Origin: Candidatus Nezhaarchaeales archaeon
GTDB lineage: Archaea; Thermoproteota; Methanomethylicia; Nezhaarchaeales; WYZ-LMO8
Direction of reading: 5' to 3'
Assembly: GCA_038887515.1 (NCBI GenBank)
Contig: JAWAKK010000001.1
Coordinates: 710,205 to 774,204 of the forward strand
Length of the DNA: 64,000 nucleotides
In this document: one piece after another, positions 10,526-58,689 of the stretch
How the letters are laid out: every line of letters starts with the position of its first letter
How positions within the stretch are numbered: position 1 is the stretch's first letter
Program-made: the position numbers and the translations under genes
Notes under the pieces: model-generated
The model's database searches: none
Seen by the model: the letters and a program-made list of their open reading frames with translations, nothing else
What the model was told of the DNA's origin: nothing

Positions 10526-10927
10526 ATGGACAGGGGCGTAGCTTCTTCACTAGCACTCTTAGCTTCAATTATGATATTGATGAGTCAGATAAGCATAAAT
10601 GTAGCTTTCGTAGAGGTCGTAAACGAAGAGGTTGCGAAGACTGTTCAGAAGGTCGTTGAGAGGGCTCGTCTTAGTCAGCTAAACTTAGTCGTCGCTACTG
10701 AGGGTTCATCGATAATTGTGTTTAATGGTCGAGAGAGTGGGGTATCTATAACTAGCTTATCGCTATGCTACATCAACGGTAGCGTTGTGGACCTTAAAGT
10801 AGATTGGTTCATTCCAGCAAAATCTGCGTGTAAGCACCATGTTCCTTTATCCATCTCTGATTGCGTGGCAGTAATATTGGTGTTAAATGAAGGAGAAAGA
10901 ATGCTATTGCCCGTAAGTAAGGTTTAA
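10526..10927 (+). CDS. Hypothetical small protein with hydrophobic N-terminus
   Basis: 133-aa ORF from the track. N-terminal hydrophobic stretch may be a signal or TM segment. No recognisable domain. GTG start. Confidence 0.3.
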   Translation: MDRGVASSLALLASIMILMSQISINVAFVEVVNEEVAKTVQKVVERARLSQLNLVVATEGSSIIVFNGRESGVSITSLSLCYINGSVVDLKVDWFIPAKSACKHHVPLSISDCVAVILVLNEGERMLLPVSKV

Positions 10928-12114: not shown

Positions 12115-12211
12115 GGGCCCGTGGCGCAGCCCGGATAGCGCGGCGACAACCGTTAAGGTTGCCGTAAGCCTCCTAAGCCGTTGGTCGTGGGTTCAAATCC
12201 CACCGGGCCCG
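12115..12211 (+). tRNA. Intron-containing tRNA-Arg (anticodon CCU or CCG depending on intron position)
   Basis: 7-bp acceptor stem GGGCCCG/CGGGCCC. D-arm GCGC-AGCCCGGATA-GCGC. T-arm GTGGG-TTCAAAT-CCCAC. 97 nt, about 22 nt too long between the D- and T-arms. Removing nt 34-55 of the gene (genomic 12148-12169) gives a canonical loop CUCCUAA (U33, A37, anticodon CCU). A canonical 37/38 intron would give CCG with U at position 37. No CCA encoded. Confidence 0.7.
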
Positions 12212-13916: not shown

Positions 13917-14378
13917 GAACCTAAACCTTAAGCTGGCCTCGCGCCTTCTCGTAAGTACCTGCCCCCAAGTAATGTTCGACTTTATGGTCTTCTACGTAAT
14001 ACTTGATATTTATAAAATGCTTTTTAATTTTTACCCTTAAAAGCCCTAATTTACATAAAAAGTATCGGTACTGATGTGCTTCCCCACATAAAACTTTATG
14101 TAACATGAAGCGAGGGGGCCCGCTTTTAGGTCGACAATGTAAAGGTTTGAATACCTACGTGCAATCGTTTCAACGCACGATTTTCAAGTAATGTAAAGAG
14201 CTTTGACGTGATGTTCATTTATTTGAAGTAAAGTTTATTGGGATCCTTCTAAAGGAGTTTTCCCTATGGGAGGGAGACAAAGGACGACGCTACTGGAGAT
14301 TTTTGAAGAGAAGAAGAGTGGAACCGAGAAAAAAGCTAAAAAGTAGAAAGCCGTGAAAAATAAAAATGCGAAGTGTAA

Positions 14379-14398
14379 GGGGGGGGGGGGGGGGGGGG
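14379..14398. repeat. G20 homopolymer tract
   Basis: Twenty consecutive G at 14379-14398, read directly. Lies 31 nt upstream of the ATG at 14429. Overlapped only by an implausible poly-Gly N-terminal extension of the track ORF. Confidence 0.95.
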
Positions 14399-14428: not shown

Positions 14429-15415
14429 ATGTCTCAGAAGCACAACGCCGTGGCAGAGAAGCTCTCAGAATATTGTAGATCTAATAAAGCTATAACCTCT
14501 TTCCTACAAGAAATGGTCCTAAGAGGTATTAGCGAAATAAGACCTATCATATCGAGTAACGTAGAATACCCCGAACTTTCAGAATTCTTTGGCAAAGAAG
14601 CCAGTAAGATGCTTGAAGTGATGATTAGGGATGGCATACTTAAAGGCGTGGTCGTTGATAGGATATTGATGTGCCCCGAGTGCAACGCAATAACAGTAAG
14701 GACGCGCTACTTATGTCCTAGCTGTAAGAGCTTTAACGTTGAGCGTGTCTCGCTTATAGAGCACATAATTTGCGGCTTTATTGGATCAAACAGGCTATTC
14801 AAGAAAGGTGAAAGCGAAGTGTGTCCACGCTGTGGCCGTACCTTAAAGAGGGCTCAAGTGGACTGGAGGATCATAGGTATGACCTTTGAATGCTACGATT
14901 GCGGACTCATGTTTGATGAGCCCAAGATAGCCCACAAGTGTCTACCAAACGGTCACGAATTCGACCCAACGAATTCGAAGTACGAAGCCGTTTACAAGTA
15001 CGTGATCAAAGACGAGGTCGTGAAAATGGTACAAGAAGGCTTCCTGGTAACTTCTACCATTCATCAAGTCCTCGCATCGTCAGGATACGAAGTCCATGTC
15101 GACGGGGCCGTAAGAGGCCTTTCTGGCGTCGACCATAGATTTAACGTCGTAGGATCAAAGGACGGAAAGTTGACAGTAATCGAAACTAGCAACTTGCAAT
15201 CGGGCAGAGAGCAGTTAATGCAGATGGTCGCTAAGGTCATAGACACCAAACCTTCGCGAGCACTATTAGTAGTGCTTTCTCAAAGCGAAGAGGGTTTAAG
15301 AGAGCTTGAATCTCTTGCCTCATCGTTAAACATACGACTTATTGCGGTCAAAAACTTAATGGAAATAGGGGAAGCTATCCGGCGGATATTAAGTGAGGAA
15401 AGCGAAAAATCTTAA
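14429..15415 (+). CDS. Multi-zinc-ribbon protein, candidate regulator of the adjacent type IV pilus locus
   Basis: Start moved to ATG 14429 (GGAG about 10 nt upstream), dropping the poly-Gly extension. Three CxxC pairs (CPECN...CPSCK, CPRCG, CYDCG) follow an N-terminal helical region. C-terminal ~130 aa of unknown fold. No confident family assignment. Confidence 0.5.
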   Translation: MSQKHNAVAEKLSEYCRSNKAITSFLQEMVLRGISEIRPIISSNVEYPELSEFFGKEASKMLEVMIRDGILKGVVVDRILMCPECNAITVRTRYLCPSCKSFNVERVSLIEHIICGFIGSNRLFKKGESEVCPRCGRTLKRAQVDWRIIGMTFECYDCGLMFDEPKIAHKCLPNGHEFDPTNSKYEAVYKYVIKDEVVKMVQEGFLVTSTIHQVLASSGYEVHVDGAVRGLSGVDHRFNVVGSKDGKLTVIETSNLQSGREQLMQMVAKVIDTKPSRALLVVLSQSEEGLRELESLASSLNIRLIAVKNLMEIGEAIRRILSEESEKS

Positions 15416-15419
15416 GAAC

Positions 15420-16280
15420 CTACAGTAGCTGCGTAAAGACTAAGATCAGTACCGCCAACATCAATGCCGAGTGCCTCAACCCAGTTAACATAGACCCCTT
15501 AGATATCTTTCCTATTGCAAGCCCAGCAGCTATGGCCTCTATTACCCCGCAATAGAAAAATATGGCTTTGTAGAAATCGATGCCCCTAAATCCCTTAACT
15601 ATCTCTCCAAAACCCTCCGTAAGCGTTAGGGGGGTTACTAGCTGAGTCATCAGTATGTAGACCGTTAACAGGTACACCACAAAGCTTACGTACATGATCC
15701 AGGTGTAGGACTTGAGCTCTGTCTCCTTCTCAGTTTCGTACGATTCCAAAGCTGAGTGTAATGTGAGGAAGGATTGAAGAATGTTTAGGGCTTTAGCTCC
15801 ACTCCTCATAACCTCTACGAGTAGTATAGATACCTTATCCATGAGCGGGGTCCTAGCCATCTTAGCTATGTCAATTATCGAAATTTCAGGGTCGAACCCT
15901 AACATCATCTTGGCGACTACTCTATTCAACTCCTTTGAAAGTGGACCGTAACGGTTTTTAGCGCACTCTTTAAGGGCAATCGTCAATGGAACGCCAGTCC
16001 TCACGTAATCTACTAAGTCCCTGATGAATTGGGAGACGCCTTTCTCAATCCCTCTCTTCCATCTATGCTCAAGGTCTTCAACCACTCCAACTATAAGGCA
16101 CAAGACCAAGATCCCTACACAGAATATAGAGTTGACCAGTTGGCTAGTAGGTATGAATATTGGAGGGGCGGGAGTGTAAAGCTTCAGGTAGAATGGCAAG
16201 TAGAATATCGCCACGGCAGATGCAATGGCCACAAAGTAAGTAGCCGCCTTCTGGCGGGGAGAGAAGAAGCGCCCGTTCAT
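15420..16280 (-). CDS. Type II secretion system F-domain membrane protein (TadC/FlaJ-like, second half)
   Basis: Polytopic membrane protein with one T2SSF-like domain. Its ATG lies one codon after an in-frame TAA that ends the upstream T2SSF gene (TAA-GCC-ATG). Confidence 0.6.
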   Translation of the reverse strand: MNGRFFSPRQKAATYFVAIASAVAIFYLPFYLKLYTPAPPIFIPTSQLVNSIFCVGILVLCLIVGVVEDLEHRWKRGIEKGVSQFIRDLVDYVRTGVPLTIALKECAKNRYGPLSKELNRVVAKMMLGFDPEISIIDIAKMARTPLMDKVSILLVEVMRSGAKALNILQSFLTLHSALESYETEKETELKSYTWIMYVSFVVYLLTVYILMTQLVTPLTLTEGFGEIVKGFRGIDFYKAIFFYCGVIEAIAAGLAIGKISKGSMLTGLRHSALMLAVLILVFTQLL

Positions 16281-16283
16281 GGC

Positions 16284-17174
16284 TTACACCGACGAAAGCG
16301 CCTTGTCCATCAATACCAACACTATGGCCGCGAGTACCGGCATCAATACGAATGCTGTAAGCATAGTTACTGAGACCGGGTCAACGCCGAAGAGTTGTTG
16401 GCCGAGCATGGCCACTATGATCAGTATGGTTATGATAATTATTGGACCTACTATAACCAAGGCTACGTACATCTCGGATAGATATCCCATAGCCGTCAGG
16501 ACCTTGCGTAGAGTTGATCTCCTGAACTCTACGAGACTTTTCGCGTAGTCCATTAAGTACCCCGATACGTCTCCGCTCGAGCCTATGACGGTTGAGAGTC
16601 CTTCCAATAGTGTCTTCAAATGAATCGAGGGGGACCTATTGGCTGCTTCGTATAGGGCTTTTATGGGATCTACGTTGAATATAGCCATCTGTCTAAGTAT
16701 AAAGCAGAACGTGTTTTTAATGGCTTTCTCGCTCTCGATCTCCACGGTCCTCCTGATCAAGGTCTCGATAGTTGTTCCAGCTGAAGCCAGCGCAGCCATG
16801 TACTCCACAGTATATGGGAGGGCTCTGTCTATTCTAAAAGCCAAGTTCTTGGACCTTACATAAGGGTAGTATGCGCCTACCGTAAAAGTGACCGAGAAGC
16901 CTAGGATAGCCCATACAACTACGAGCACCAGCACATAGAGCATGGGTAGGCCCAGCACTAGGGCGTTGACTATAAAGGAAACAATGGCCGAGGCTACGCA
17001 GACCATTATGCTCATGAAGACGACTGCTGAGGCGTAAGCCGGAAATGGAATGCCCATCTGAGCCTTAAGGTACCTCTCCCTTACGAAGGAGATGAATGGA
17101 GAATTTGAGCTAGGCTTAAAGAGCCTGTAACTGAATGAGGATATGGCTTCGAGGAGACCGTTTCCCTTCGACAT
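16284..17174 (-). CDS. Type II secretion system F-domain membrane protein (TadB/FlaJ-like, first half)
   Basis: 296 aa. Cytoplasmic T2SSF-like domain (LPYTVEYMAALASAGTTIETLIRR) flanked by TM segments. Follows the ATPase gene after a 6-nt gap. Confidence 0.6.
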   Translation of the reverse strand: MSKGNGLLEAISSFSYRLFKPSSNSPFISFVRERYLKAQMGIPFPAYASAVVFMSIMVCVASAIVSFIVNALVLGLPMLYVLVLVVVWAILGFSVTFTVGAYYPYVRSKNLAFRIDRALPYTVEYMAALASAGTTIETLIRRTVEIESEKAIKNTFCFILRQMAIFNVDPIKALYEAANRSPSIHLKTLLEGLSTVIGSSGDVSGYLMDYAKSLVEFRRSTLRKVLTAMGYLSEMYVALVIVGPIIIITILIIVAMLGQQLFGVDPVSVTMLTAFVLMPVLAAIVLVLMDKALSSV

Positions 17175-17182
17175 GGCCTCAC

Positions 17183-18703
17183 CTAAGGGGTAGCTACCAA
17201 CTTTAGCAACTCACTCCTAGCCCTCTCGTAGGTTTCTCGAGGCTTTAAGTAGTAGCTTCTAATAACCTTGGCTACGTCGTCGTGCCTCGATAGGTCCTTC
17301 TTCAACATCCATTCAAGCACAACCTTCCTGTTCTCTAGTTCACTCGTAACGTTATCAAAACCTAGCCTCTTGACTATGATGCTGCCATCTGCTATCAACC
17401 TAGTGAAGGAATCGGTAAGCGGATCCCAACGATATATGGGATTTATCATGATTTCCCCGCTTCTAGGGTCTATCCCCGTGACCTCGTTTACCTCTATAAC
17501 CCTTCTAACCGTAACCCCTCTCACTTTTCTTCTAGCAACTAGTATTATGGTTTCAATCATTGGTATAAGTTCTCTAGGAACATTCATAGGCTTAGACTCG
17601 AGCCTCCTTATGGCCGCCTCTATGTTTTCAGCGTGTATGGTGCATAGACCTCCGTGGCCTGTAGCCACGGCTTGAAAGAGAGCGTAGGCTTCTTCGCCCC
17701 TGACTTCGCCGACGATTATGTAGTCGGGCCTTTGCCTTAAAGCGGACTTTAATAGGTCGAACGCCGATATCTCTGGGGCTCCATCGGTCGTGCTGGGCCT
17801 AGTAACTAAAGGGACCCAGTTCTCATGTGGGAGCATTAGCTCCCTCGTTTCCTCTATAGTTATTACCTTGGCTTCAGGCCTTATCAGGGCGGCTATAGCG
17901 TTTAGGAGAGTAGTCTTGCCGGACGCAGTTGCACCGCAAATAAGCATAGACCTCATTTGCTCGACCATAATCCATAGGTAAGCTGCTACTTCGCTCGACA
18001 AAGTACCTAACTTTATTAGGTCTATTATAGTAAACTTTTCAGGCCTATACTTCCTAATGGTAAAGGTCGACCCCCTCTTAGAGACCACGTCTAGGGTTAG
18101 GTGGACTCGATGTCCTTCAGGTAGCACGCCATCGATGACCGGCCTTGCAATGGAAACCTGCTGCTTAGCCTTAAACGACAGGGTCATGACGAAGGAGTTT
18201 AGTTCCTCCTCACTTTCAAAGGATACGTTCGTTGGAAGCTCCTCGTACTTTACGTGCCAAACGTATATTGGGATCCCGACGCCAGCGCAGCTTATATCTT
18301 CGATGTTGGGATCCCTAACTATGCCGTCTATCTTTCCGTAGCCCAGCAGGTCCCTAACTATGTAATAAAGTATCTTATCTAGGGCTTCTGAGGCCACCTT
18401 GAAGCCGTACTTCTTAATAACTTTCTTAGTTGCTTGGACTATGAAGGACCTCGCCTTTTCCGGGTCTTCTACGTCCTCTACGTCTACGTCAACCGACTCC
18501 TTGATGAACTCCTTGACCCTACGTACTACCTCCACCTCGTCCTGTAGAAGCGTTGGCTCTACGACTTCGTACCTAAGCTTCCCGACGGGATCCATTACTA
18601 TAGCTATGTGGCAGAAGGGGGGATTCACGGCGTAGAAGTCTCTTAAACGAGCTAGCTCAACTTGTTCTAAGCCCTTAGAGTCTCCAGCCCGCTTAATACT
18701 CAT
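17183..18703 (-). CDS. Type IV pilus/archaellum-family secretion ATPase (FlaI/CpaF/VirB11 superfamily)
   Basis: Walker A GATASGKTT, Asp/His boxes and typical length of 506 aa. Confidence 0.85.
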   Translation of the reverse strand: MSIKRAGDSKGLEQVELARLRDFYAVNPPFCHIAIVMDPVGKLRYEVVEPTLLQDEVEVVRRVKEFIKESVDVDVEDVEDPEKARSFIVQATKKVIKKYGFKVASEALDKILYYIVRDLLGYGKIDGIVRDPNIEDISCAGVGIPIYVWHVKYEELPTNVSFESEEELNSFVMTLSFKAKQQVSIARPVIDGVLPEGHRVHLTLDVVSKRGSTFTIRKYRPEKFTIIDLIKLGTLSSEVAAYLWIMVEQMRSMLICGATASGKTTLLNAIAALIRPEAKVITIEETRELMLPHENWVPLVTRPSTTDGAPEISAFDLLKSALRQRPDYIIVGEVRGEEAYALFQAVATGHGGLCTIHAENIEAAIRRLESKPMNVPRELIPMIETIILVARRKVRGVTVRRVIEVNEVTGIDPRSGEIMINPIYRWDPLTDSFTRLIADGSIIVKRLGFDNVTSELENRKVVLEWMLKKDLSRHDDVAKVIRSYYLKPRETYERARSELLKLVATP

Positions 18704-18794
18704 CCTAAAGCGCCTAGAAAAATCTAGAAGGCGAAGCTCAAAACTTTTCCGGAGCGAGTAAAGCCTAGCAGACGAGTTCTTTTAACGATAGATT

Positions 18795-18808: not shown

Positions 18809-18836
18809 CGCAAATTATTATCGTTCGGTGAACACC

Positions 18837-19265
18837 ATGAAGAAGGTTAAAGGGGTCTCCCCCATAGTAGCAGTACTATTACTCATAGTCATAGCTGTAG
18901 CGGCAGCTGCAATGACGTATGGCTTCGTAATGGGCTTCATAGGTGGAGCCGCAACAACTACAACAACGACGCAAGCAATGATAAGGGTAGAAGCAGTAGA
19001 TGCCACTACTGGTACTGATGCCACAGTATACGTTAGGAACATAGGCTCCATCCCTGTAACTGTCGACTTCATATATGTGTACCACGCTAATGGAACCCTC
19101 ATGAGTACACAACGGCTTTCGACTTCGATCACGATTCCTCCGGGTAATGTAGGTATAGTTTATGTCGATGGCCTAGATTTAAGTGGAGGGGTTACGTACT
19201 ACGTCAAGGTAACGACCAAGGAAGGAGCTATCGCGACATCGGAGCCCTTTAAAGTTAAAAGCTAG
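18837..19265 (+). CDS. Archaeal type IV pilin (class III signal peptide, DUF361-like N-terminus) with one beta-domain
   Basis: N-terminus MKKVKGVSPIVAVLLLIVIAVAAA matches the K-G-(V/I)SP-hydrophobic class III pattern. C-terminal ~90-aa domain is homologous to the repeats of the next gene. Start set to ATG 18837 rather than the track's GTG 18828. Confidence 0.7.
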   Translation: MKKVKGVSPIVAVLLLIVIAVAAAAMTYGFVMGFIGGAATTTTTTQAMIRVEAVDATTGTDATVYVRNIGSIPVTVDFIYVYHANGTLMSTQRLSTSITIPPGNVGIVYVDGLDLSGGVTYYVKVTTKEGAIATSEPFKVKS

Positions 19266-19411
19266 CCCGTAGTAGTGTGAGTAATACTATACGCAGTTAC
19301 TATAGTGTTTCGGGTCTAGCTTTTTTAACATACAATCAATTTTTCCTCCTTGTTATGTTTACCACAATAGTTATACCTAAAGCTGTTATAAAGAAGGATT
19401 TAGCGACGCCT

Positions 19412-20707
19412 ATGAGTGGAGGCAAGGGGATCTCTCCGATAGCTTCTACGCTATTGCTAATAATGGTTGTAGTTGCTGCTACGGTAACCACGTACAACTT
19501 AGTTATTGGACTTGTAGGAGTAACCGCTACATCGCCTCTACGATCTGTAATAAGGGTGGACGAAGTTAGCATCTCTGGTAGCGAGCTTACTGTTTACGTC
19601 AGGAACCTTGGTCCGGCTCCAATGACGCTAGATTCGGTATACGTGTACTCTGTTGACGGGGTACTAGTCGGGCGCGTTCATATTAACCCCAAAACGATAG
19701 ATGCGGGAGAGGTTGAGGCTATTACGGGCATACCAATTGGTTACTTGAAGGAGGGGGGTGTCTACTACATCAAGGTAGCTACAATGGAGGGAGCTATCGC
19801 GTCTTCCCAAGCATTTAAAGTCGGATTAGCTAAATCAGCTAAAGCTATAATAGTGATAGAAAGATTGGAGACCGAGCCAGCTACATTGAACACATTCAAT
19901 GCTACACTGTACGTCAAGAATGCGGGCGACGTCCCAGTGACGATAGACGAAGTACGCGTATACTACTCGTTATCGAAGAAGACTTTACTGGAAAGCATTG
20001 ACATTGCAAAGAGATTAAATCCTGGAGAGACTGTGAGGATCGTTATTGACAAAATACCATACGACATAGAGCGGCAGAGGCCTAGCTACGAGATTGAAGT
20101 AACAACTATAGAAGGAGTTATAGCAACTACGAAGGCTATGGTACTAGCAAGAGAAATGTTGGTAGAAACAGGATTAAGTGCGGAAGGATTCAACATAGAC
20201 GCCTCCATATACGTTATAAATTATGGCGCTGCCCCAGCAATAATAGATAAAGTACAAGTATACATCGATGGAGAGTTGGACAGTATCGTAAACCTTGGGA
20301 ACTTGTCGCTAGGTGTGACGAGTTCAACAACCATTAATTTCAACGTTACTATAGATCCAAGCAAGTCCTACTCCTTCAAGATTGTAGGAAGTGATGAGGC
20401 TTTAACGTCGTGGCGAGCAATAGTGGTAGCTGAAGCGAGTGCAACACCGATAAACGATCGCAGTTACAGCGTTACTGTTTACGTTAGGAACGTCGGCTCC
20501 ACCCCCGTAACGATTTACGGCTTGTACATACAATCTGAACGAGGGGACTTAATAGTGCCCCTGATAGATGTAGGGGAGGTGATAAAGCCAAAAGAGATTA
20601 AAGAGATAATTAATCCAATTACCCTAACGAATGGGACATACTACATATTCGTGTTTACTGATGAGCCTTGGTTTTTAGAAGCGAAGACGAGGCTAGAATT
20701 GGTATGA
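19412..20707 (+). CDS. Modular type IV pilin/adhesin with class III signal peptide and four tandem beta-domain repeats
   Basis: Internal ATG 19412 gives MSGGKGISPIASTLLLIMVVVAA, a class III signal. Four ~90-aa repeats share an xxYVRNxGxxPVTID-like core (TVYVRNLGPAPMTLD, TLYVKNAGDVPVTID, SIYVINYGAAPAIID, TVYVRNVGSTPVTIY). The 45-aa extension in the track ORF is probably not translated. Confidence 0.65.
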   Translation: MSGGKGISPIASTLLLIMVVVAATVTTYNLVIGLVGVTATSPLRSVIRVDEVSISGSELTVYVRNLGPAPMTLDSVYVYSVDGVLVGRVHINPKTIDAGEVEAITGIPIGYLKEGGVYYIKVATMEGAIASSQAFKVGLAKSAKAIIVIERLETEPATLNTFNATLYVKNAGDVPVTIDEVRVYYSLSKKTLLESIDIAKRLNPGETVRIVIDKIPYDIERQRPSYEIEVTTIEGVIATTKAMVLAREMLVETGLSAEGFNIDASIYVINYGAAPAIIDKVQVYIDGELDSIVNLGNLSLGVTSSTTINFNVTIDPSKSYSFKIVGSDEALTSWRAIVVAEASATPINDRSYSVTVYVRNVGSTPVTIYGLYIQSERGDLIVPLIDVGEVIKPKEIKEIINPITLTNGTYYIFVFTDEPWFLEAKTRLELV

Positions 20708-51953: not shown

Positions 51954-52204
51954 AAAACGTCAGATAAAAGGATAGTAATAGCGAATACTTGAAACTTATC
52001 CATAGCATCTAGAGACGCTAAATGCGGTTTAGCAATATGCTAAGAATTAAAGGTTGATAGACAATTCAATACCGATGAGATTTTGGACCACTTACATCCT
52101 AAAAGTGTATTATTTCGCAATTTTATGTCACAATTTATATAATCTGTACTAAAAAATATTTAAATTTCGTAAATTTTCGTGTTAACAACGAGGATGTAAG
52201 AAGA

Positions 52205-53077
52205 ATGATCAAGAAAGTTGTTATTACTGCCGCGGGTCTTGGTACGAGGCTGCTACCAATAACTAAAGAGATACCCAAAGAGATGCTACCAATATGTCTT
52301 GATAATAGTAACGGTCCTACTCTTAAGCCTCTCCTTCAAGCGCTTTTTGAACAACTGTATTCGTTCGGATTTAGAGACTTTTGTTTTGTTGTTGGTAGAG
52401 GGAAGAGGGCTATTGAGGATCATTTTACTCCGGATTGGAATTTCGTCAATAGTTTAAGAAGTAAGGGTAAATTAAACATTGCCGAGGAATTGGAAAATTT
52501 CTATAGGATGATAGAAAGCTCAAGGATACTATTCGTTAATCAACCCGAGCCAAAGGGGTTTGGGCATGCAGTTTTAATGGCTAAACCTTTTGTGGGGAAA
52601 GAGCCCTTCATGGTTTGTGCTGGAGATACTTACATAATTTCAACTAATAACGACTTCTTAAAGAGGTTGGTGTCGGCTTTTTCAGATGATGTTACAGCGG
52701 CAATTCTTCTTCAGAGGGTTGAAGATCCTTGGAATTATGGCGTTGCTCTTGTTAAGCCGAGTAATAGCTTATTATTAGATATAATAGAGGTTGTCGAAAA
52801 ACCCAAAGCTCCTAAGTCAAATATAGCAATAATGCCATTCTACATATTCAAGCCGGAAATAATAGGGGTATTAGAGAATTTGGAGCCAGGCGTTGGCAAT
52901 GAATACCAGCTTACAGATGCCATTCAAAAGATAATTATGATGGGTCGAAGAGTTGTTGGTGTCTTACTTGAAGAAGACGAATTGAGGCTCGATATAGGAA
53001 CGCCAAAGACATACATCGAGGCTTTAAAAGTGTCTTACGAATATCATCGTAGGAGGAATTATAATGTCACATATTAA
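52205..53077 (+). CDS. Sugar-1-phosphate nucleotidyltransferase (GalU/RmlA-like)
   Basis: N-terminal VVITAAGLGTRLLPITKEIPKEMLPI nucleotidyltransferase signature. 290 aa. Confidence 0.8.
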   Translation: MIKKVVITAAGLGTRLLPITKEIPKEMLPICLDNSNGPTLKPLLQALFEQLYSFGFRDFCFVVGRGKRAIEDHFTPDWNFVNSLRSKGKLNIAEELENFYRMIESSRILFVNQPEPKGFGHAVLMAKPFVGKEPFMVCAGDTYIISTNNDFLKRLVSAFSDDVTAAILLQRVEDPWNYGVALVKPSNSLLLDIIEVVEKPKAPKSNIAIMPFYIFKPEIIGVLENLEPGVGNEYQLTDAIQKIIMMGRRVVGVLLEEDELRLDIGTPKTYIEALKVSYEYHRRRNYNVTY

Positions 53078-54068
53078 ATTCGAAGTACGACTACCTTCAA
53101 ATCTTGAGGAGATGGTAAAAGATAAAACATTTCTAATAACCGGGGGGGCTGGTTTTATTGGAAGCTGGCTTACAGAAACTTTAGTTGAACTAGGAGCAAA
53201 AGTAACCGTTTTGGATAATCTCTCATCAGGAAGTATCGAGAACATTAAACATTTGTTTAATTGCGGGAACTTCGACTTTATCGAAGCCGATGTTTCAAAC
53301 TACAAAAACAATAGAATTTATGATTACATAGTTCACGCAGCAAGCATCCCAGCGCCTGATATGTACGTTACGAGACCCGTTGAGACAATGTTACCAAATA
53401 GCATTGGTACGTTAAACATCTTAGAAGTCTCAAGAAAGTATGGAAGTCGAGTCTTATTTCTATCGACTTCTGAAGTTTATGGAGATGCGAGAGTTGTCCC
53501 AACCCCAGAAAACTACTGGGGATATGTAAATCCTATAGGTATAAGGTCTTGTTATGACGAATCCAAGCGCTTTGGCGAAGCATTATGTATGGCATATTTT
53601 AGACAGTATGGTATTGACGTTAGAATTGCCCGAATTTTTAATACGTACGGGCCAAGGCTTGACCCAAATGCTTGTTATGCAAGGGTTATTTCTAAATTTA
53701 TAATCCAAGCCTTAAGAGGTGATCCTATAACAATTTATGGTGATGGAAAACAAACTCGAAGTTTCCTGTATATAACTGATGCGATTGAGGCACTAGTTAA
53801 GTTCCTTTTAATAGATGGGCTAAGTGGAGAAGTTGTTAATATAGGCAGTCCGCACGAAATAACGATATTAGAGTTGGCTAACATTATAAAAAGACTCACC
53901 GGTTCTAATTCTCCAATAGAGTTTCATCCACCAAGACCTGATGATCCAAAAAGAAGGTGCCCCGATATTTCTAAGGCACAGAGAATTTTGAACTGGAACC
54001 CCAAAGTTTCATTACACGATGGACTCGAACTTACCATTGCATGGTTTAAGAAGGTGATAATAATATGA
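53064..54068 (+). CDS. NAD-dependent sugar-nucleotide SDR, UDP-glucuronate decarboxylase (UXS)-like
   Basis: Extended SDR. GGAGFIGS Rossmann motif. YxxxK catalytic region. ARIFNTYGPRL motif characteristic of UXS/ArnA-type decarboxylases. Confidence 0.7.
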   Translation: MSHIKFEVRLPSNLEEMVKDKTFLITGGAGFIGSWLTETLVELGAKVTVLDNLSSGSIENIKHLFNCGNFDFIEADVSNYKNNRIYDYIVHAASIPAPDMYVTRPVETMLPNSIGTLNILEVSRKYGSRVLFLSTSEVYGDARVVPTPENYWGYVNPIGIRSCYDESKRFGEALCMAYFRQYGIDVRIARIFNTYGPRLDPNACYARVISKFIIQALRGDPITIYGDGKQTRSFLYITDAIEALVKFLLIDGLSGEVVNIGSPHEITILELANIIKRLTGSNSPIEFHPPRPDDPKRRCPDISKAQRILNWNPKVSLHDGLELTIAWFKKVIII

Positions 54069-55423
54069 CTGTCATCTCGTACATAGGCATGGGATATGTA
54101 GGACTGGCGAGCGCTGTATGCTTGGCATATAAAGGCTTTAGGGTAATAGGTGTAGACATAGATCCTTTAAAAGTTAAAATTATAAACTCGGGTAAGCCGC
54201 CATACTATGAGCCTAAAGTTGAAGAACTTTTAAAAGATGTGTTAAAAAAAGACCTTTTTTATTGCACCACCGATTACATCAAAGCGGTGCAAGGTTCAAA
54301 TATAACGTTTATAGCTGTTGGCACTCCAAGCAATCCGGATGGAAGCATAAATCTTGATCAAATAAAAAGGGCTGCGAAATACATTGGAGAGGCGCTAAGA
54401 GACAAACATGAATATCACTTAGTAGTTGTCAGAAGCACCGTTGTCCCTGGAACTACGGAGAAAGTGGTTAAACCCATAATTGAGCAAGCTTCAGGAAAGA
54501 GTTGTGGTAGTGAGTTCGGCTTGTGCTTCAACCCAGAATTCCTTAGAGAAGGTTCGGCTGTGGATGATACCTTTAATCCTGATAGGGTAGTTATAGGTGA
54601 ATTTGATGAACGGTCTGGCAATACGCTTGAAAAACTATATAGGGACTTCCACGGAGATGAAGTACCTGTAATCATGAGAACTAATATAGTTAATGCTGAG
54701 CTCATAAAATATGCTAATAATGCATTTTTAGCGATGAAGGTTAGTTTCATCAACATGATAGCAAACCTATGCCAAAAGCTTCCAGGAGCTGACGTTGAGG
54801 TTGTAGCCAAGGGTATAGGTTTAGATAAGAGAATAGGACCTCTCTTTCTTAAAGCCGGGGCTGGATGGGGGGGAAGCTGTTTTCCAAAAGACCTTAAAGC
54901 ATTACTTCATTTCGGCTTAAAGAGTGGCGTAGAACTACCGCTCGTTGAATCAACGTTGAAGGTCAATGAAAATCAACCCTATAAACTCATTGAATTAGCC
55001 AAAAGTCTTATTGGAACCTTGCGTGGAAGGAGGGTTTCCATACTTGGGCTAGCTTTTAAAGCTGGAACGGACGATATGAGAGAGGCCGTTTCAATAAAGG
55101 TTGTTGAGAGACTTTTAGACGAGGGTGCCAACTTAATAGTATACGATCCTAAAGCCATGGAAAACGCTAAGAAAATCTTCGGTAGTCGTATTGAATATGC
55201 TAATAACATTGAAGAGTGCTTAAAGGGATCTGAGTGCGCAATAATAGTTACAGAGTGGGATGAATTTCGTAAGTTAACACCCGAGCGTTACATAGAGCTA
55301 ATGAAAATTCCAGCAATCGTAGATGGGAGAAGAATTTACGATCCACGCGAGTTCTCACGTAAACTTAGATTTGCAGCTATAGGGTATGGACAAGAAACTT
55401 CGGCAACAATTCATTATTCATAA
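54065..55423 (+). CDS. ugd: UDP-glucose 6-dehydrogenase
   Basis: N-terminal GMGYVGL Rossmann motif. Catalytic GGSCFPKD motif. 452 aa. Overlaps the upstream gene by 4 nt. Confidence 0.85.
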   Translation: MTVISYIGMGYVGLASAVCLAYKGFRVIGVDIDPLKVKIINSGKPPYYEPKVEELLKDVLKKDLFYCTTDYIKAVQGSNITFIAVGTPSNPDGSINLDQIKRAAKYIGEALRDKHEYHLVVVRSTVVPGTTEKVVKPIIEQASGKSCGSEFGLCFNPEFLREGSAVDDTFNPDRVVIGEFDERSGNTLEKLYRDFHGDEVPVIMRTNIVNAELIKYANNAFLAMKVSFINMIANLCQKLPGADVEVVAKGIGLDKRIGPLFLKAGAGWGGSCFPKDLKALLHFGLKSGVELPLVESTLKVNENQPYKLIELAKSLIGTLRGRRVSILGLAFKAGTDDMREAVSIKVVERLLDEGANLIVYDPKAMENAKKIFGSRIEYANNIEECLKGSECAIIVTEWDEFRKLTPERYIELMKIPAIVDGRRIYDPREFSRKLRFAAIGYGQETSATIHYS

Positions 55424-55843
55424 CCAAATATGATAATTTCATTTTTACTACGAGAAGGAATTTTTAAAATACATTTTTAAGTTTGTAAAATCTTCTAAAA
55501 AGTTCTGTCAAAAACAAGATGAAGTAAAAGCAGGATATACTCCAGTATTTAATAAATATTGGAGTTTTAGAATTAGACGAATGTTGAGGCGTTTACCTAA
55601 ATCTCCTTTAAGTTCGCAAGGACTTACCGTTTTATAACTTATAATTATTTATTACCTTATAGCTATGCTACTGATGTACCATTACCTGATAGTCAAGTTC
55701 CAGTGGTTGAGATCACTTTGGATGAGCCCTCATGATATTAAATTATAGCTTTAATTGTTGAATTAAGAATGCTGGCTAATCATCAACGTACTCGCCTATT
55801 TTACGAATACTAATACTTAAGCTTACTTTGATTAAAAGCAAGG

Positions 55844-55877
55844 TAAGATATAAGTAGTGTTAAGATATAAGTAGTGT
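55844..55877. repeat. Perfect 17-nt tandem duplication (TAAGATATAAGTAGTGT x2)
   Basis: Read directly. Two adjacent identical 17-mers in the AT-rich intergenic region upstream of the disrupted GT2 gene. Confidence 0.85.
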
Positions 55878-55894
55878 AAGGATGCAACTGTTAA

Positions 55895-57039
55895 GGTAAG
55901 TCAAGGAAGGGGGATTTTGATATAAAAACTGCCATTCTAGTGCCTACATATTGCGGTGCAGATGTATTACCATACTTACTTGAGAGCTTAATAAAAAGTG
56001 GATCTATGCCAGACATGATATTATTTGTTGTAAAGGCTTGTCCTATATCTGAGCTTGAAGGAATTAAAGTTATAGAGGATTTCGTTGAAAAAACATAAAA
56101 GGTCAAACAAAAGCATCTATCATTAAATATAAAGGTCCTTACGGATTAGTTAGACAAATATTGATTGGATTAAGGACTTTATACAAATTAAATTATGACA
56201 TCGTTATATTCTTAGATGATGATTCGTACATTGTTTCTAATAAGTTTGTTGAATTACATGAAAAATGGTACGAAGTAAATGAAGTTGGTGGAGTAGCAGG
56301 TTGTATAATAGACGTATGGAAGCGTGGCGAGGACTTTGTACAAATAGCTGGAAATGTGTCTATACCTCCCAAAAGGCTTTACTTGTGGAGAGAGCCAGCT
56401 ATTAAGATTCTCAATAGGTTTATACCTCAAACATATTTTACAAAGGGAGGCTATGTTGCAGTATGTGGAAACGATACTTATCATCTTAAGAGGGGTGCAA
56501 GGCATGTATTCTCTTTACTGGGCGGCGGATCAAACATGTCAATAAGGTTAGCAGCACTTAGTTGCTTTCTGAAAGGGGATAATATCGCAAAACTTTTACC
56601 TAATACTCCAATCGCTATGAGGTACGAACAGATACTAGCTTATCACATAGTTAAAAGAGGTTACGTAATAGTTAAAGATTACAACATAAAGACTTACCAC
56701 ATATTCAGAGAAGGAGGCGAGACAAGAGCTCCTAGGAATTATCGAAGGAGTACAATTACTGCAACGGATGATTTCCTGTACTTTTACATGAAGCATTCGT
56801 ATCCATGTGATTTTTCATTTATACATAAAATTTTGGCTGTTATACAGAGGCTATATCGATCCATAGTTGTAGAACAAAAGAAAAGTAGTGATATCGAACT
56901 ACTTCTTGCCCGTCTTTTTGGTCACTTATTTGGAAATAGTGTCGGAATATGGTGGAGCCTATCGTCTAACAAAGAGTACGTATATCAATTATTTAGGAGG
57001 TATGAAAGTTTTATGAAGGGTATACTTAAGGAATCGTAA
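55895..57039 (+). pseudogene. Family 2 glycosyltransferase disrupted by a -1 frameshift in an A6 run and lacking an ATG start
   Basis: N-terminal fragment ...DIKTAILVPTYCGADVLPYLLESL...FVEKT*. Reading resumes in the +1 frame as KNIKGQTKASIIKYKGPYGLVRQILIGL...IVIFLDDDSY (DxD motif). One extra A in the A6 run at 56088-56093 would give a continuous ORF. The expected start codon position reads ATA. Confidence 0.65.
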
Positions 57040-57447
57040 TTATAATGATAGGCTTTACAACCATAAAGTAACTTATGGACCACTTTATTAATCGCATGTT
57101 TTCTCTGAAGTACTTCACCAAGAACGTTGAGATTTAAGGTCTAAGCATGCGGTTCGCCCATAAAGATCGGAAGAAGCCGAGAATAAATGCCAGTCCAAGC
57201 CTTTACCATCTTGGCTCATCTACTCTCCGGTAAAGGTCTTGTAACTAAAATCGAAAGGAACAAGTTTAGAAGTTTAGCCTATACTAATAAGCCAAAGATA
57301 TTTACGCTCTTCTTCTGAAGATTACCTCCTTCGTCGGCTTGACGTAAACAATTTCCAGACACCATACGTGATAAGCCTTATTACTTGTTTCCGATAACTT
57401 TTTTGGACGAATAGTCATTGAAGTTAAGCTCGGAGGTCGTTATTTAA

Positions 57448-58689
57448 TTGAAGAAAGCCGTTGTTTCTCACCACTTTTGGGATAGACCTGGTGGTGGGCA
57501 ACTCGTATGTAGTGCTGTGGCTTACGCTTTAAAGGTCCTCGGTTTTAACCCTGTTTTAACGTCTATTTCGTTGTTTGAGAGGGATAAGTATATTGATTGG
57601 TTCGGAATAAACTTGCAGGACTATGAAGTTATACCGTTTTTGAAATTTAGGTTGAGGGCATTTGGGATATACATGAGGCTCCTCGTTTGGGTGCCAATGA
57701 AAAAAGCCATAGAAAAGCTTAACCCGGATATAGTCTTTACTGACGAATGCACCTATAGGCCTGTAGAGAAGCTTGTCGATCGCGAGAAAACCCTATTTGT
57801 TGAGTACATACATTTTCCAATTGAAGTCTCGATTCTAGAGGAGTATAAAGGTAGTGGCTTGTACTATGGTGAGGATCCTTACCTATTAGAGCGCTATAGT
57901 AGGTTCCCCATGAACATATATTGGTGGGGGTACGCGAAGCTTCTCCCCCTCTTTCTACGCAGGAACCCGTTTGAAGTGGCTTCATTGGTGCTGACGAATT
58001 CTAAGTGGACAGCCGAAATCGCAGGAAAGATCTACGGAGAGAGACCTCAGGTGCTGAATCCACCTATAGCGCCAAACGTCGAAATAGCCCAAGAACCTAA
58101 GGTGTTCGAAGAGAGGGAGAACGCCATAGTTATGCTTGGACGCTTCTCCGAAGAGAAGAGGTACCACTGGGTTGTGGAGGAGGTTATGCCGAGACTTCGC
58201 AGAGAGCTAGGAGGTGTAAAGCTGTACGTCTTTGGTGGTGCTAGGACCAAGACCAGTATGATGTATCTAAGCGAAGTAGGAGAAAGGGCTACAAGGAGAG
58301 GCTTAAAAGTGTCTAATAACATTAAAGACTTGGCTGACATATATCTGGTACCTGACGCTCCCAGAAAAGTCATAAACAATGTAATGGACAAGGCGAAGGT
58401 CTTTTTACATGCAACCATAAACGAGCACTGGGGCATAGCGCCAGCCGAAGCCATGGCTAGAGGGTTACCAATAGTAGTTCACAAATCGGGTGGAACTTGG
58501 AGCGATCTTGCTGTCGAAGGTGAGTACGGGCTGGGGTATAATAATATCGAAGAGGTCATAGAATTGCTGTCTAAACTTCTAAATGACGAAAACGTGTGGA
58601 GACATTACTCGAAAAGGTCTATCCTTAAAGCAGGAGATTTAACAATAATTAAGTTCATAGACAGGCTCAAAGGGTTGATTAAAGCTTGA
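57448..58689 (+). CDS. Family 4 (GT-B, retaining) glycosyltransferase
   Basis: C-terminal EX7E-type motif region (NEHWGIAPAEAMARGLPIVVHKSGG). 413 aa. TTG start. Confidence 0.75.
   Translation: MKKAVVSHHFWDRPGGGQLVCSAVAYALKVLGFNPVLTSISLFERDKYIDWFGINLQDYEVIPFLKFRLRAFGIYMRLLVWVPMKKAIEKLNPDIVFTDECTYRPVEKLVDREKTLFVEYIHFPIEVSILEEYKGSGLYYGEDPYLLERYSRFPMNIYWWGYAKLLPLFLRRNPFEVASLVLTNSKWTAEIAGKIYGERPQVLNPPIAPNVEIAQEPKVFEERENAIVMLGRFSEEKRYHWVVEEVMPRLRRELGGVKLYVFGGARTKTSMMYLSEVGERATRRGLKVSNNIKDLADIYLVPDAPRKVINNVMDKAKVFLHATINEHWGIAPAEAMARGLPIVVHKSGGTWSDLAVEGEYGLGYNNIEEVIELLSKLLNDENVWRHYSKRSILKAGDLTIIKFIDRLKGLIKA

Follow-up and report, generated by a model that had tools for sequence, protein, structure and literature searches.

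The window, that is, the whole stretch of 64,000 nucleotides of Candidatus Nezhaarchaeales DNA that was analysed, contains a gene for a 328-aa protein next to a type IV pilus operon. The features of this locus are the following:

14429 to 15415 (stop codon included), plus strand: coding sequence of the 328-aa protein, with a TackOD1 domain and a predicted restriction endonuclease (REase)-fold module; from the list of open reading frames, an identical NCBI protein and homologs
14501 to 15004, plus strand: TackOD1 domain (Pfam PF18551), residues 25-192, E=2.2e-33
14672 to 14725, plus strand: predicted Zn site 1, C82-x2-C85 ... C96-x2-C99, invariant in 64 sequences
14762 to 14833, plus strand: predicted Zn site 2, H112-x2-C115 ... 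C132-x2-C135, invariant in 64 sequences
14891 to 14956, plus strand: predicted Zn site 3, C155-x2-C158 ... H169-x-C171, from the alignment, degenerate in this lineage
15005 to 15409, plus strand: predicted REase-fold (Mrr-like) module without a catalytic site, residues 193-327; from Foldseek, the profile register, the Pfam matches of homologs and the motif table
15420 to 16280, minus strand: T2SSF-family pilus platform protein (TadC/UpsF-like), Pfam T2SSF E=2.7e-11, convergent with the TackOD1 gene
16284 to 17174, minus strand: second T2SSF-family platform protein, Pfam T2SSF E=6.2e-12
17183 to 18703, minus strand: type IV filament assembly ATPase (T2SSE/FlaI-like), the proposed target, Pfam T2SSE E=2.6e-36
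18828 to 19265, plus strand: archaeal type IV pilin (UpsA-like), Pilin_N E=1e-7, UpsA model E=2.6e-10, divergent from the ATPase operon
19277 to 20707, plus strand: large pilin-like protein of 476 aa, with a CARDB domain (Pfam) and internal repeats detected by tblastn

The open reading frame at 14429-15415, which had been proposed in the initial annotation, is a genuine gene, far beyond chance, because it has more than 900 full-length relatives with about 30% identity that keep its whole length, as do nine close relatives. Its product is 100% identical to the hypothetical protein QW701_03850 from a Candidatus Nezhaarchaeales MAG (NCBI; P0001). Translation from the ATG at 14429, which follows AAAGGAG, a GGAG-like ribosome-binding site, yields the 328-aa protein. 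The first ATG of the frame that ends at 15415 is located at 14366 and would give 349 aa; this longer version was rejected as spurious because it requires read-through of a 20-nt poly-G tract (14379-14398, plus strand, about 30 nt 5' of the start codon at 14429, read as 'GGGGGG') that is missing from all relatives compared. A role as a phase-variation or G-quadruplex element was rejected as well, because four related loci lack the tract although both of its flanks align, one of the four being 86% identical and from an independent assembly. An artefact of sequencing or assembly is the most likely origin of the poly-G run, given that two-colour Illumina chemistry calls absent signal as G.

Further upstream, we identified a 26-codon micro-ORF (MGGRQRTTLLEIFEEKKSGTEKKAKK followed by a stop; 14266-14346, plus strand) with a GGAG-like ribosome-binding site, itself preceded by a conserved TATA-like box (AAAGTTTATT, 14230-14239). 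The micro-ORF is conserved in four related loci (L001, L002, L004 and L089), and the nucleotide differences between these relatives are mostly synonymous, which suggests that it is a real small protein gene just 5' of the TackOD1 gene; a search of the Bathyarchaeia loci did not reveal it. A scan for sigma-70 promoters and intrinsic terminators, a procedure unsuited to archaea, returned no more candidates than shuffled controls.

Several other features of the window lie apart from the pilus locus. At 10526-10927 (plus strand), between the Sua5 and TFB genes, there is an ORF for a 133-aa protein with a hydrophobic N-terminus, and a 134-aa gene occupies the equivalent position in the related locus L001; neither matches any family. 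At 12115-12211 (plus strand), ARAGORN reports a 97-nt tRNA of ambiguous identity whose anticodon loop is called with four bases (cgtt); the bacterial-mode scan has probably misread an archaeal tRNA that contains an intron. The block at 52000-58000, with a low GC content (0.38 vs about 0.46 elsewhere), encompasses a nucleotide-sugar and glycosylation cluster (NTP-transferase, epimerase/dehydratase, UDP-glucose dehydrogenase and GT1 glycosyltransferase genes) and is probably a variable surface-glycan island.

The initial annotation had described the gene as divergent from or adjacent to the secretion ATPase operon. Adjacency is confirmed, with the genes nearby matching the UpsA and UpsF NCBIfam models, and divergence is not: the TackOD1 gene and the pilus operon converge, their stop codons (15415 and 15420) being 4 nt apart. 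The assembly ATPase scores 395 bits against the NCBIfam FlaI model, under the cut-off of 550. The 476-aa protein contains an N-terminal pilin segment and three segments that are 31-44% identical to the pilin encoded at 18828-19265, and is an internally repeated 'poly-pilin'. An inverted repeat, CGCCT(A)...(T)AGGCG, is located at 18711-18733, a few bases 5' of the ATPase start at 18703 (minus strand); locus L001 has an equivalent repeat at the ATPase start, with conserved outer arms and a different inner sequence, and this element could be a 5'-UTR hairpin or an operator.

Judging from its Pfam match, which scores 115.8 bits against a cut-off of 32 and covers model positions 13-187 of 188, the 328-aa protein belongs to TackOD1 (PF18551, arCOG06883), a named but functionally uncharacterised family. 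Thus, a protein previously left without any nameable family has one, and the occurrence of this family in archaeal type IV pilus loci had been published already: reports from 2016 and 2018 describe it as Zn-binding and obscure in function (Makarova et al. 2016, PMC4858521; PMC5847659). TackOD1 ('Thaumarchaeal output domain 1') was defined as an output domain of roughly 200 aa in response regulators of the TACK group (Galperin et al. 2018, PMC5847659), with a hallmark of eleven conserved cysteines arranged in five CxxC motifs and one HxxC (PMC5847659). Our literature search found no paper later than these reports that mentions TackOD1.

The window protein shares with the described members the full-length Pfam match, the Cys-rich core with multiple Zn ribbons and, as in the case of thaumarchaeal members, the type IV pilus locus. 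It differs from them in several respects. The type example, AFS80801, is a REC-TackOD1 protein of 318 aa, whereas the window protein has no REC receiver (the Pfam scan yielded no Response_reg match), a domain that Pfam does detect in the relatives P0123, P0158, P0171, P0201 and P0212; it carries an additional C-terminal REase-fold module; and its host belongs to Nezhaarchaeales rather than to Thaumarchaeota. Finally, it contains 10 cysteines instead of 11, the fifth CxxC being degenerate (C174 replaced by N).

An alignment of 64 diverse members reveals invariant metal ligands at C82/C85, C96/C99, H112/C115, C132/C135, C155/C158 and H169/C171, which in the 328-aa protein form four CxxC motifs, one HxxC (H112/C115) and one HxC (H169/C171). 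All the motifs noticed in the initial annotation (CPECN, CPSCK, CPRCG and CYDCG) are present in the protein; the three CxxC zinc-ribbon pairs counted there fall short of the actual 12 ligands, a number sufficient for three predicted Zn sites, with Zn binding itself proposed from the ligand pattern. The fifth CxxC reads C171-x2-N174, so that N174 of the third site stands where the family has Cys; Bathyarchaeia-type relatives keep the full set. The third site is WCxCxxC...HxCxxC in the Bathyarchaeia-type members vs FECYDC...HKCLPNGH in the clade of the window protein (alignment A5), and H176 or H169 may substitute for the lost C174 as a ligand. This change appears to be a lineage-specific degeneration of a single Zn site rather than a loss of the domain.

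We built an AlphaFold2 model of the 328-aa protein from the 64-sequence alignment (mean pLDDT 88.2, pTM 0.76). The model includes helices at residues 3-18, 20-31 and 48-67, a beta-rich Zn-ribbon core (71-193) and a C-terminal alpha/beta domain (195-327), in agreement with the helical N-terminus, zinc-ribbon cluster and C-terminal domain of about 130 aa that had been read from the sequence. A Foldseek search of PDB with the full model, the type of search suggested in the initial annotation, matched only the C-terminal domain, and exclusively with PD-(D/E)xK nucleases: Cdn1 (E=8e-6), AF1548 (PDB 1y88; E=1.4e-5, rank 2) and, further, Can2, Card1, VC1899, the R2 RLE domain, OkrAI, McrC, Mus81 and Hjc. 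The TackOD1 half remained without a match. A separate model of residues 1-195 has a pLDDT of 89.6, and a search of PDB with it produced nothing significant (best E=0.076, probability 0.11), so this fold seems to have no solved homolog; a direct sequence search of PDB with the whole 328-aa protein yielded nothing significant either. We also considered residues 1-80 as a winged helix-turn-helix (wHTH) domain with a Zn ribbon inserted in the wing, an arrangement unsupported by the profile and PDB searches. Among HTH searches of residues 1-81 in 12 diverse members, only TackOD1 was recovered along with a marginal SoFic-like_C match (E=0.07), and no HTH structures appeared in the PDB profile search or in the Foldseek search of the TackOD1 half.

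According to the model, the C-terminal portion of about 135 aa is a restriction endonuclease-fold (Mrr-like) module that lacks the catalytic site. The order of its secondary structure elements in AlphaFold2 (alpha-alpha-beta-beta-beta-alpha-beta-alpha-beta-alpha, residues 195-327), together with the Foldseek matches, shows the alpha-beta-beta-beta-alpha-beta REase core that is shared with Mrr-type PD-(D/E)xK nucleases (Mrr_cat, PF04471; AF1548, PDB 1y88). The best match of a profile of the module to PDB sequences is AF1548, a weak one (E=0.29) whose register agrees with the fold match and aligns the family F-D239 with I-D of AF1548, and D252-L-A254 with E-C-K. By this register, the position of the catalytic lysine is occupied by Ala in the family and by Ser in the window protein, in which the PD-(D/E)xK positions read N239 ... 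E252-T-S254, with Asn in place of the PD aspartate. Position 254 is never Lys in the 318 module copies pooled from all searches, and residue 252 varies. The family conserves instead a signature of its own, G-x-S-G-x-x-H-x-F-D ... K-x-x-D, whose SG occurs in 297 of these 318 copies, its H in 288, its K269 in 278 and its D272 in 312.

The window protein does not match Pfam Mrr_cat at E<=0.1, whereas paralogous copies of the module in other proteins pass the Mrr_cat threshold and two proteins match NA-iREase1 ('inactive restriction endonuclease'). The module resembles the iREase domains (NA-iREase1, PF22722; defence modules, PMC10853773) in being a non-catalytic module of multidomain proteins that has the REase fold without the catalytic residues; it differs from them in its context, which involves pili and surface structures as opposed to NACHT/STAND proteins or defence islands, and in the GxSGxxHxFD...KxxD signature. 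The 2018 TackOD1 paper (PMC5847659) says nothing of a nuclease-like domain in its main text.

These comparisons bear directly on whether the protein could be an active Zn-dependent nuclease, employed in anti-phage defence or in the processing of DNA that the pilus imports or exchanges. In favour of this, DNA exchange is a function of certain archaeal pili (Ups, for instance), Mrr-type and CRISPR-ancillary nucleases are among the fold matches, and Bathyarchaeia-type members retain E200, D239, D252 and E260 (among 58 sequences of this type, E200 is present in 56, and D239, D252, E260, K269 and D272 in all 58). The catalytic Lys, at the position aligned with K of the AF1548 ECK motif, is nevertheless missing from 318 of 318 copies, and the acidic residues at 200, 239 and 260 are gone from the window protein too, its clade having L/M, N/K and R there, respectively. 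The absence of the catalytic motif throughout the family, compounded by the further loss of three acidic residues in this lineage, argues against nuclease activity, as do the matches of homologous copies to an 'inactive REase' family, and we consider such an activity very improbable. Membership in a defence system was rejected, as none of the PADLOC defence models matched the window protein or the proteins P0009, P0123 and P0346.

To assess the genomic linkage, we compared 59 related archaeal loci from GTDB genomes and metagenomes, each with at least 6.5 kb of downstream sequence. In all but one, the T2SSE ATPase and both T2SSF genes are located downstream on the opposite strand, with the ATPase 2.2-5.2 kb from the stop codon of the TackOD1 gene; the exception, L072, is surrounded by housekeeping genes and lacks pilus genes. 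The linkage extends from Nezhaarchaeales to Bathyarchaeia, at about 30% protein identity, and across independent assemblies. Archaeal genomes encode only a handful of such ATPases each, so that by chance no more than a few percent of the loci should have one within a few kb. The conservation of the gene next to pilus loci in its relatives, on which the earlier proposal of a dedicated pilus regulator or accessory protein depended, is accordingly evident in 58 of the 59 loci.

A module-only profile retrieved 930 clusters among 1.84 billion representatives, in which the module is found as a stand-alone protein or in the architectures TackOD1-module, CARDB-TackOD1-module, REC-(Zn ribbon)-TackOD1-module(x2-3), TackOD1-module-TrmB wHTH, GT2 glycosyltransferase-module and [module]x2-MshEN-T2SSE, the latter being a PilB-type pilus ATPase. 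A search with the ATPase N-terminus detected at least 10 [module]x2-MshEN-T2SSE fusions; one close relative is labelled Dehalococcoidia at NCBI. It also retrieved TackOD1-[module]x2 proteins of about 453 aa, one of them likewise labelled Dehalococcoidia, with modules about 40% identical to the ATPase-fused ones. Two distinct Dehalococcoidia loci contain, on the same strand, a TackOD1-[module]x2 gene followed by four genes for proteins of about 141 aa and by genes for the ATPase, T2SSF and N_methyl pilins; the presence of two N-terminal modules in the MshEN-T2SSE ATPase of Dehalococcoidia was confirmed by hmmsearch (iE about 1e-11). The four genes between the TackOD1 gene and the ATPase (L084, 11625-13756; L086, 12246-14499) are paralogous and encode proteins of 131-141 aa. 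These are not pilins; they show a weak match, below threshold, to MAPKK1_Int/MP1 of the Roadblock/LC7 superfamily (E=0.003) and may be further cytoplasmic regulators.

In other loci, a tandem module is encoded as a separate ORF directly 5' of T2SSE, with no TackOD1 gene nearby, and GGDEF/HD-GYP genes are present near some of the module-ATPase loci. REC-(Zn ribbon)-TackOD1-module proteins are common, and in one neighbourhood, a REC-TackOD1-module gene forms an operon with genes for a histidine kinase and a processive GT2 synthase; the single GT2-module fusion lies inside a glycosylation cluster. A Bathyarchaeota subfamily of 350 aa (L094, 8001-9842; L095, 5861-7564) combines a degenerate TackOD1 domain and the module with a C-terminal TrmB-type wHTH, and is encoded outside pilus loci, with a gene for a ParA/MinD-like ATPase starting 3 nt after it. 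The pilus partner is thus not universal, since diverged relatives adjoin genes for GT2 glycosyltransferases or a ParA-like ATPase instead.

Taken together, the strict linkage in archaea, its reappearance in bacteria and the several cases in which the module is fused to a PilB-type ATPase or encoded beside one point to a partnership with the pilus ATPase and strengthen the notion of a dedicated pilus regulator or accessory. The reading that we favour, as a possibility still somewhat short of an even chance, is that the TackOD1-module protein works in the cytoplasm, without catalysis, as a regulator or adaptor of the ATPase that drives pilus assembly. Under this scenario, it would be a soluble, cytoplasmic, zinc-stabilised protein that acts post-translationally on the neighbouring type IV pilus machine, with the assembly ATPase (17183-18703) or the T2SSF platform, rather than DNA, as the target; that it touches the ATPase physically, and in which direction it regulates, are inferences. 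The REase-fold module would be the docking or sensing part, as suggested by those bacteria that build it into the ATPase N-terminus or encode it directly upstream. TackOD1 would be the signal-relay part, which in other lineages follows REC as a two-component output, and the window protein would be its receiver-less, stand-alone form. The abundance of REC-TackOD1-module proteins, one of them encoded beside a histidine kinase, speaks for a regulator or adaptor and agrees with the assignment of TackOD1 as an output domain (PMC5847659).

Several observations count against a regulator or adaptor of this kind. Genes arranged convergently and transcribed separately more typically encode regulators, among them transcription factors, than subunits of a machine; nucleic acid binding is a classic property of Zn ribbons and REase folds; the TrmB-type wHTH in one Bathyarchaeota subfamily ties the family to DNA-binding proteins; and the archaeal ATPase in the window has no module to pair with, none being detected in it by hmmsearch with the module profile. 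Moreover, the partner varies, with diverged relatives located away from pili and one of the 59 loci devoid of pilus genes.

Much of this evidence is shared with the main rival explanation, under which the protein is a transcription factor for the pilus genes that binds their promoters through the Zn ribbons, the inactivated REase-fold module or both. Inactive nucleases are frequently re-used as DNA-binding domains, and both Zn-ribbon and PD-(D/E)xK folds are typical of DNA binders; the gene has a transcription unit of its own and lies in tight linkage with the operon that it would control, the REC-fused forms resemble classical response-regulator transcription factors, and some members are named 'Zn-ribbon and HTH transcriptional regulator' by JGI. 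A role confined to promoter binding is made less likely by the failure to recover any HTH family in residues 1-81 of the 12 diverse members, by the promoters and by the fusions, which join the module to enzymes instead of DNA-binding proteins. A comparison of the promoter of the TackOD1 gene with that of the ATPase and pilin genes, a weak test with two genomes, revealed no shared operator motif or palindrome above chance or conserved in L001, and a promoter-binding domain would hardly be expected where the module is fused, at the N-terminus of ATPases of the PilB type and on a GT2 enzyme. The TrmB wHTH, which extends the link to DNA binding in one subfamily, also suggests, being an addition, that the core itself does not read DNA sequence. 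We therefore rank the regulator or adaptor of the ATPase ahead of the transcription factor, which appears somewhat unlikely.

The fusions also raise the possibility that the REase-fold module acts as a receptor, sensing a small ligand such as a nucleotide second messenger, and that the protein couples this signal to the biogenesis of surface structures, a more speculative refinement of the function of the module that we regard as quite unlikely. In bacteria, such coupling is provided by PilZ and by MshEN, which binds c-di-GMP. In PilB-type ATPases the module adjoins exactly this c-di-GMP-binding domain, and its distribution parallels that of PilZ, including the GGDEF/HD-GYP genes near some module-ATPase loci. 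The polar signature GxSGxxHxFD...KxxD is conserved family-wide and differs from the nuclease triad; the fusion to a GT2 glycosyltransferase and the REC-TackOD1-module gene that precedes a processive GT2 synthase fit the same pattern, but the GT2 evidence amounts to one fusion and one neighbourhood, and the window protein itself has the D239 to N replacement within the signature. To our knowledge, c-di-GMP signalling is not established in these archaea. The parallel with PilZ, FimX and MshEN is one of functional analogy only: these are likewise cytoplasmic, non-enzymatic modules encoded with or fused to PilB/MshE ATPases and GT2 synthases, without any sequence or fold relationship to the REase-fold module.

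Returning to the regulator or adaptor of the pilus ATPase, UpsX and AapX of Sulfolobales are positional counterparts in archaea, an analogy drawn in the initial annotation. Like these, the TackOD1 gene is non-structural, obscure in function and tied to a type IV pilus operon of an archaeon; the Sulfolobales proteins are encoded inside their operons, whereas the TackOD1 gene is convergent and separately transcribed, and no similarity between the proteins was detected. The likeness is one of position only: none of the Ups-named NCBIfam models matched the 328-aa protein, in a model library where the presence of UpsX/AapX is unconfirmed.

The gene in this window is an ordinary representative, in its lineage, of the TackOD1 family. 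Given that the family and its association with pilus loci were already in the literature, what is new here is the observation that the TackOD1 protein ends, by the predicted fold and the missing catalytic motif, in a dead nuclease-like module, and that in some bacteria this module is fused to the motor ATPase of the pilus. The control of pilus assembly in archaea outside Sulfolobales is little understood, as are the targets of two-component signalling in Thaumarchaeota and the TACK group, and TackOD1 is one of the few output domains common to several archaeal phyla. Its stand-alone form is nearly always paired with one type of pilus operon and always with the dead nuclease-fold module; this linkage, together with the ATPase fusions in Dehalococcoidia, gives biochemistry a concrete, testable target, namely, the ATPase. 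A broader proposition, which we deem unlikely, is that the module is an unrecognised regulatory or receptor domain that controls GT2 polysaccharide synthases and the ATPases of type IV pili across archaea and bacteria. If true, TackOD1-module proteins would link archaeal two-component or second-messenger signalling to pilus assembly, with a dead nuclease fold as the basis of a PilZ/MshEN-like system.
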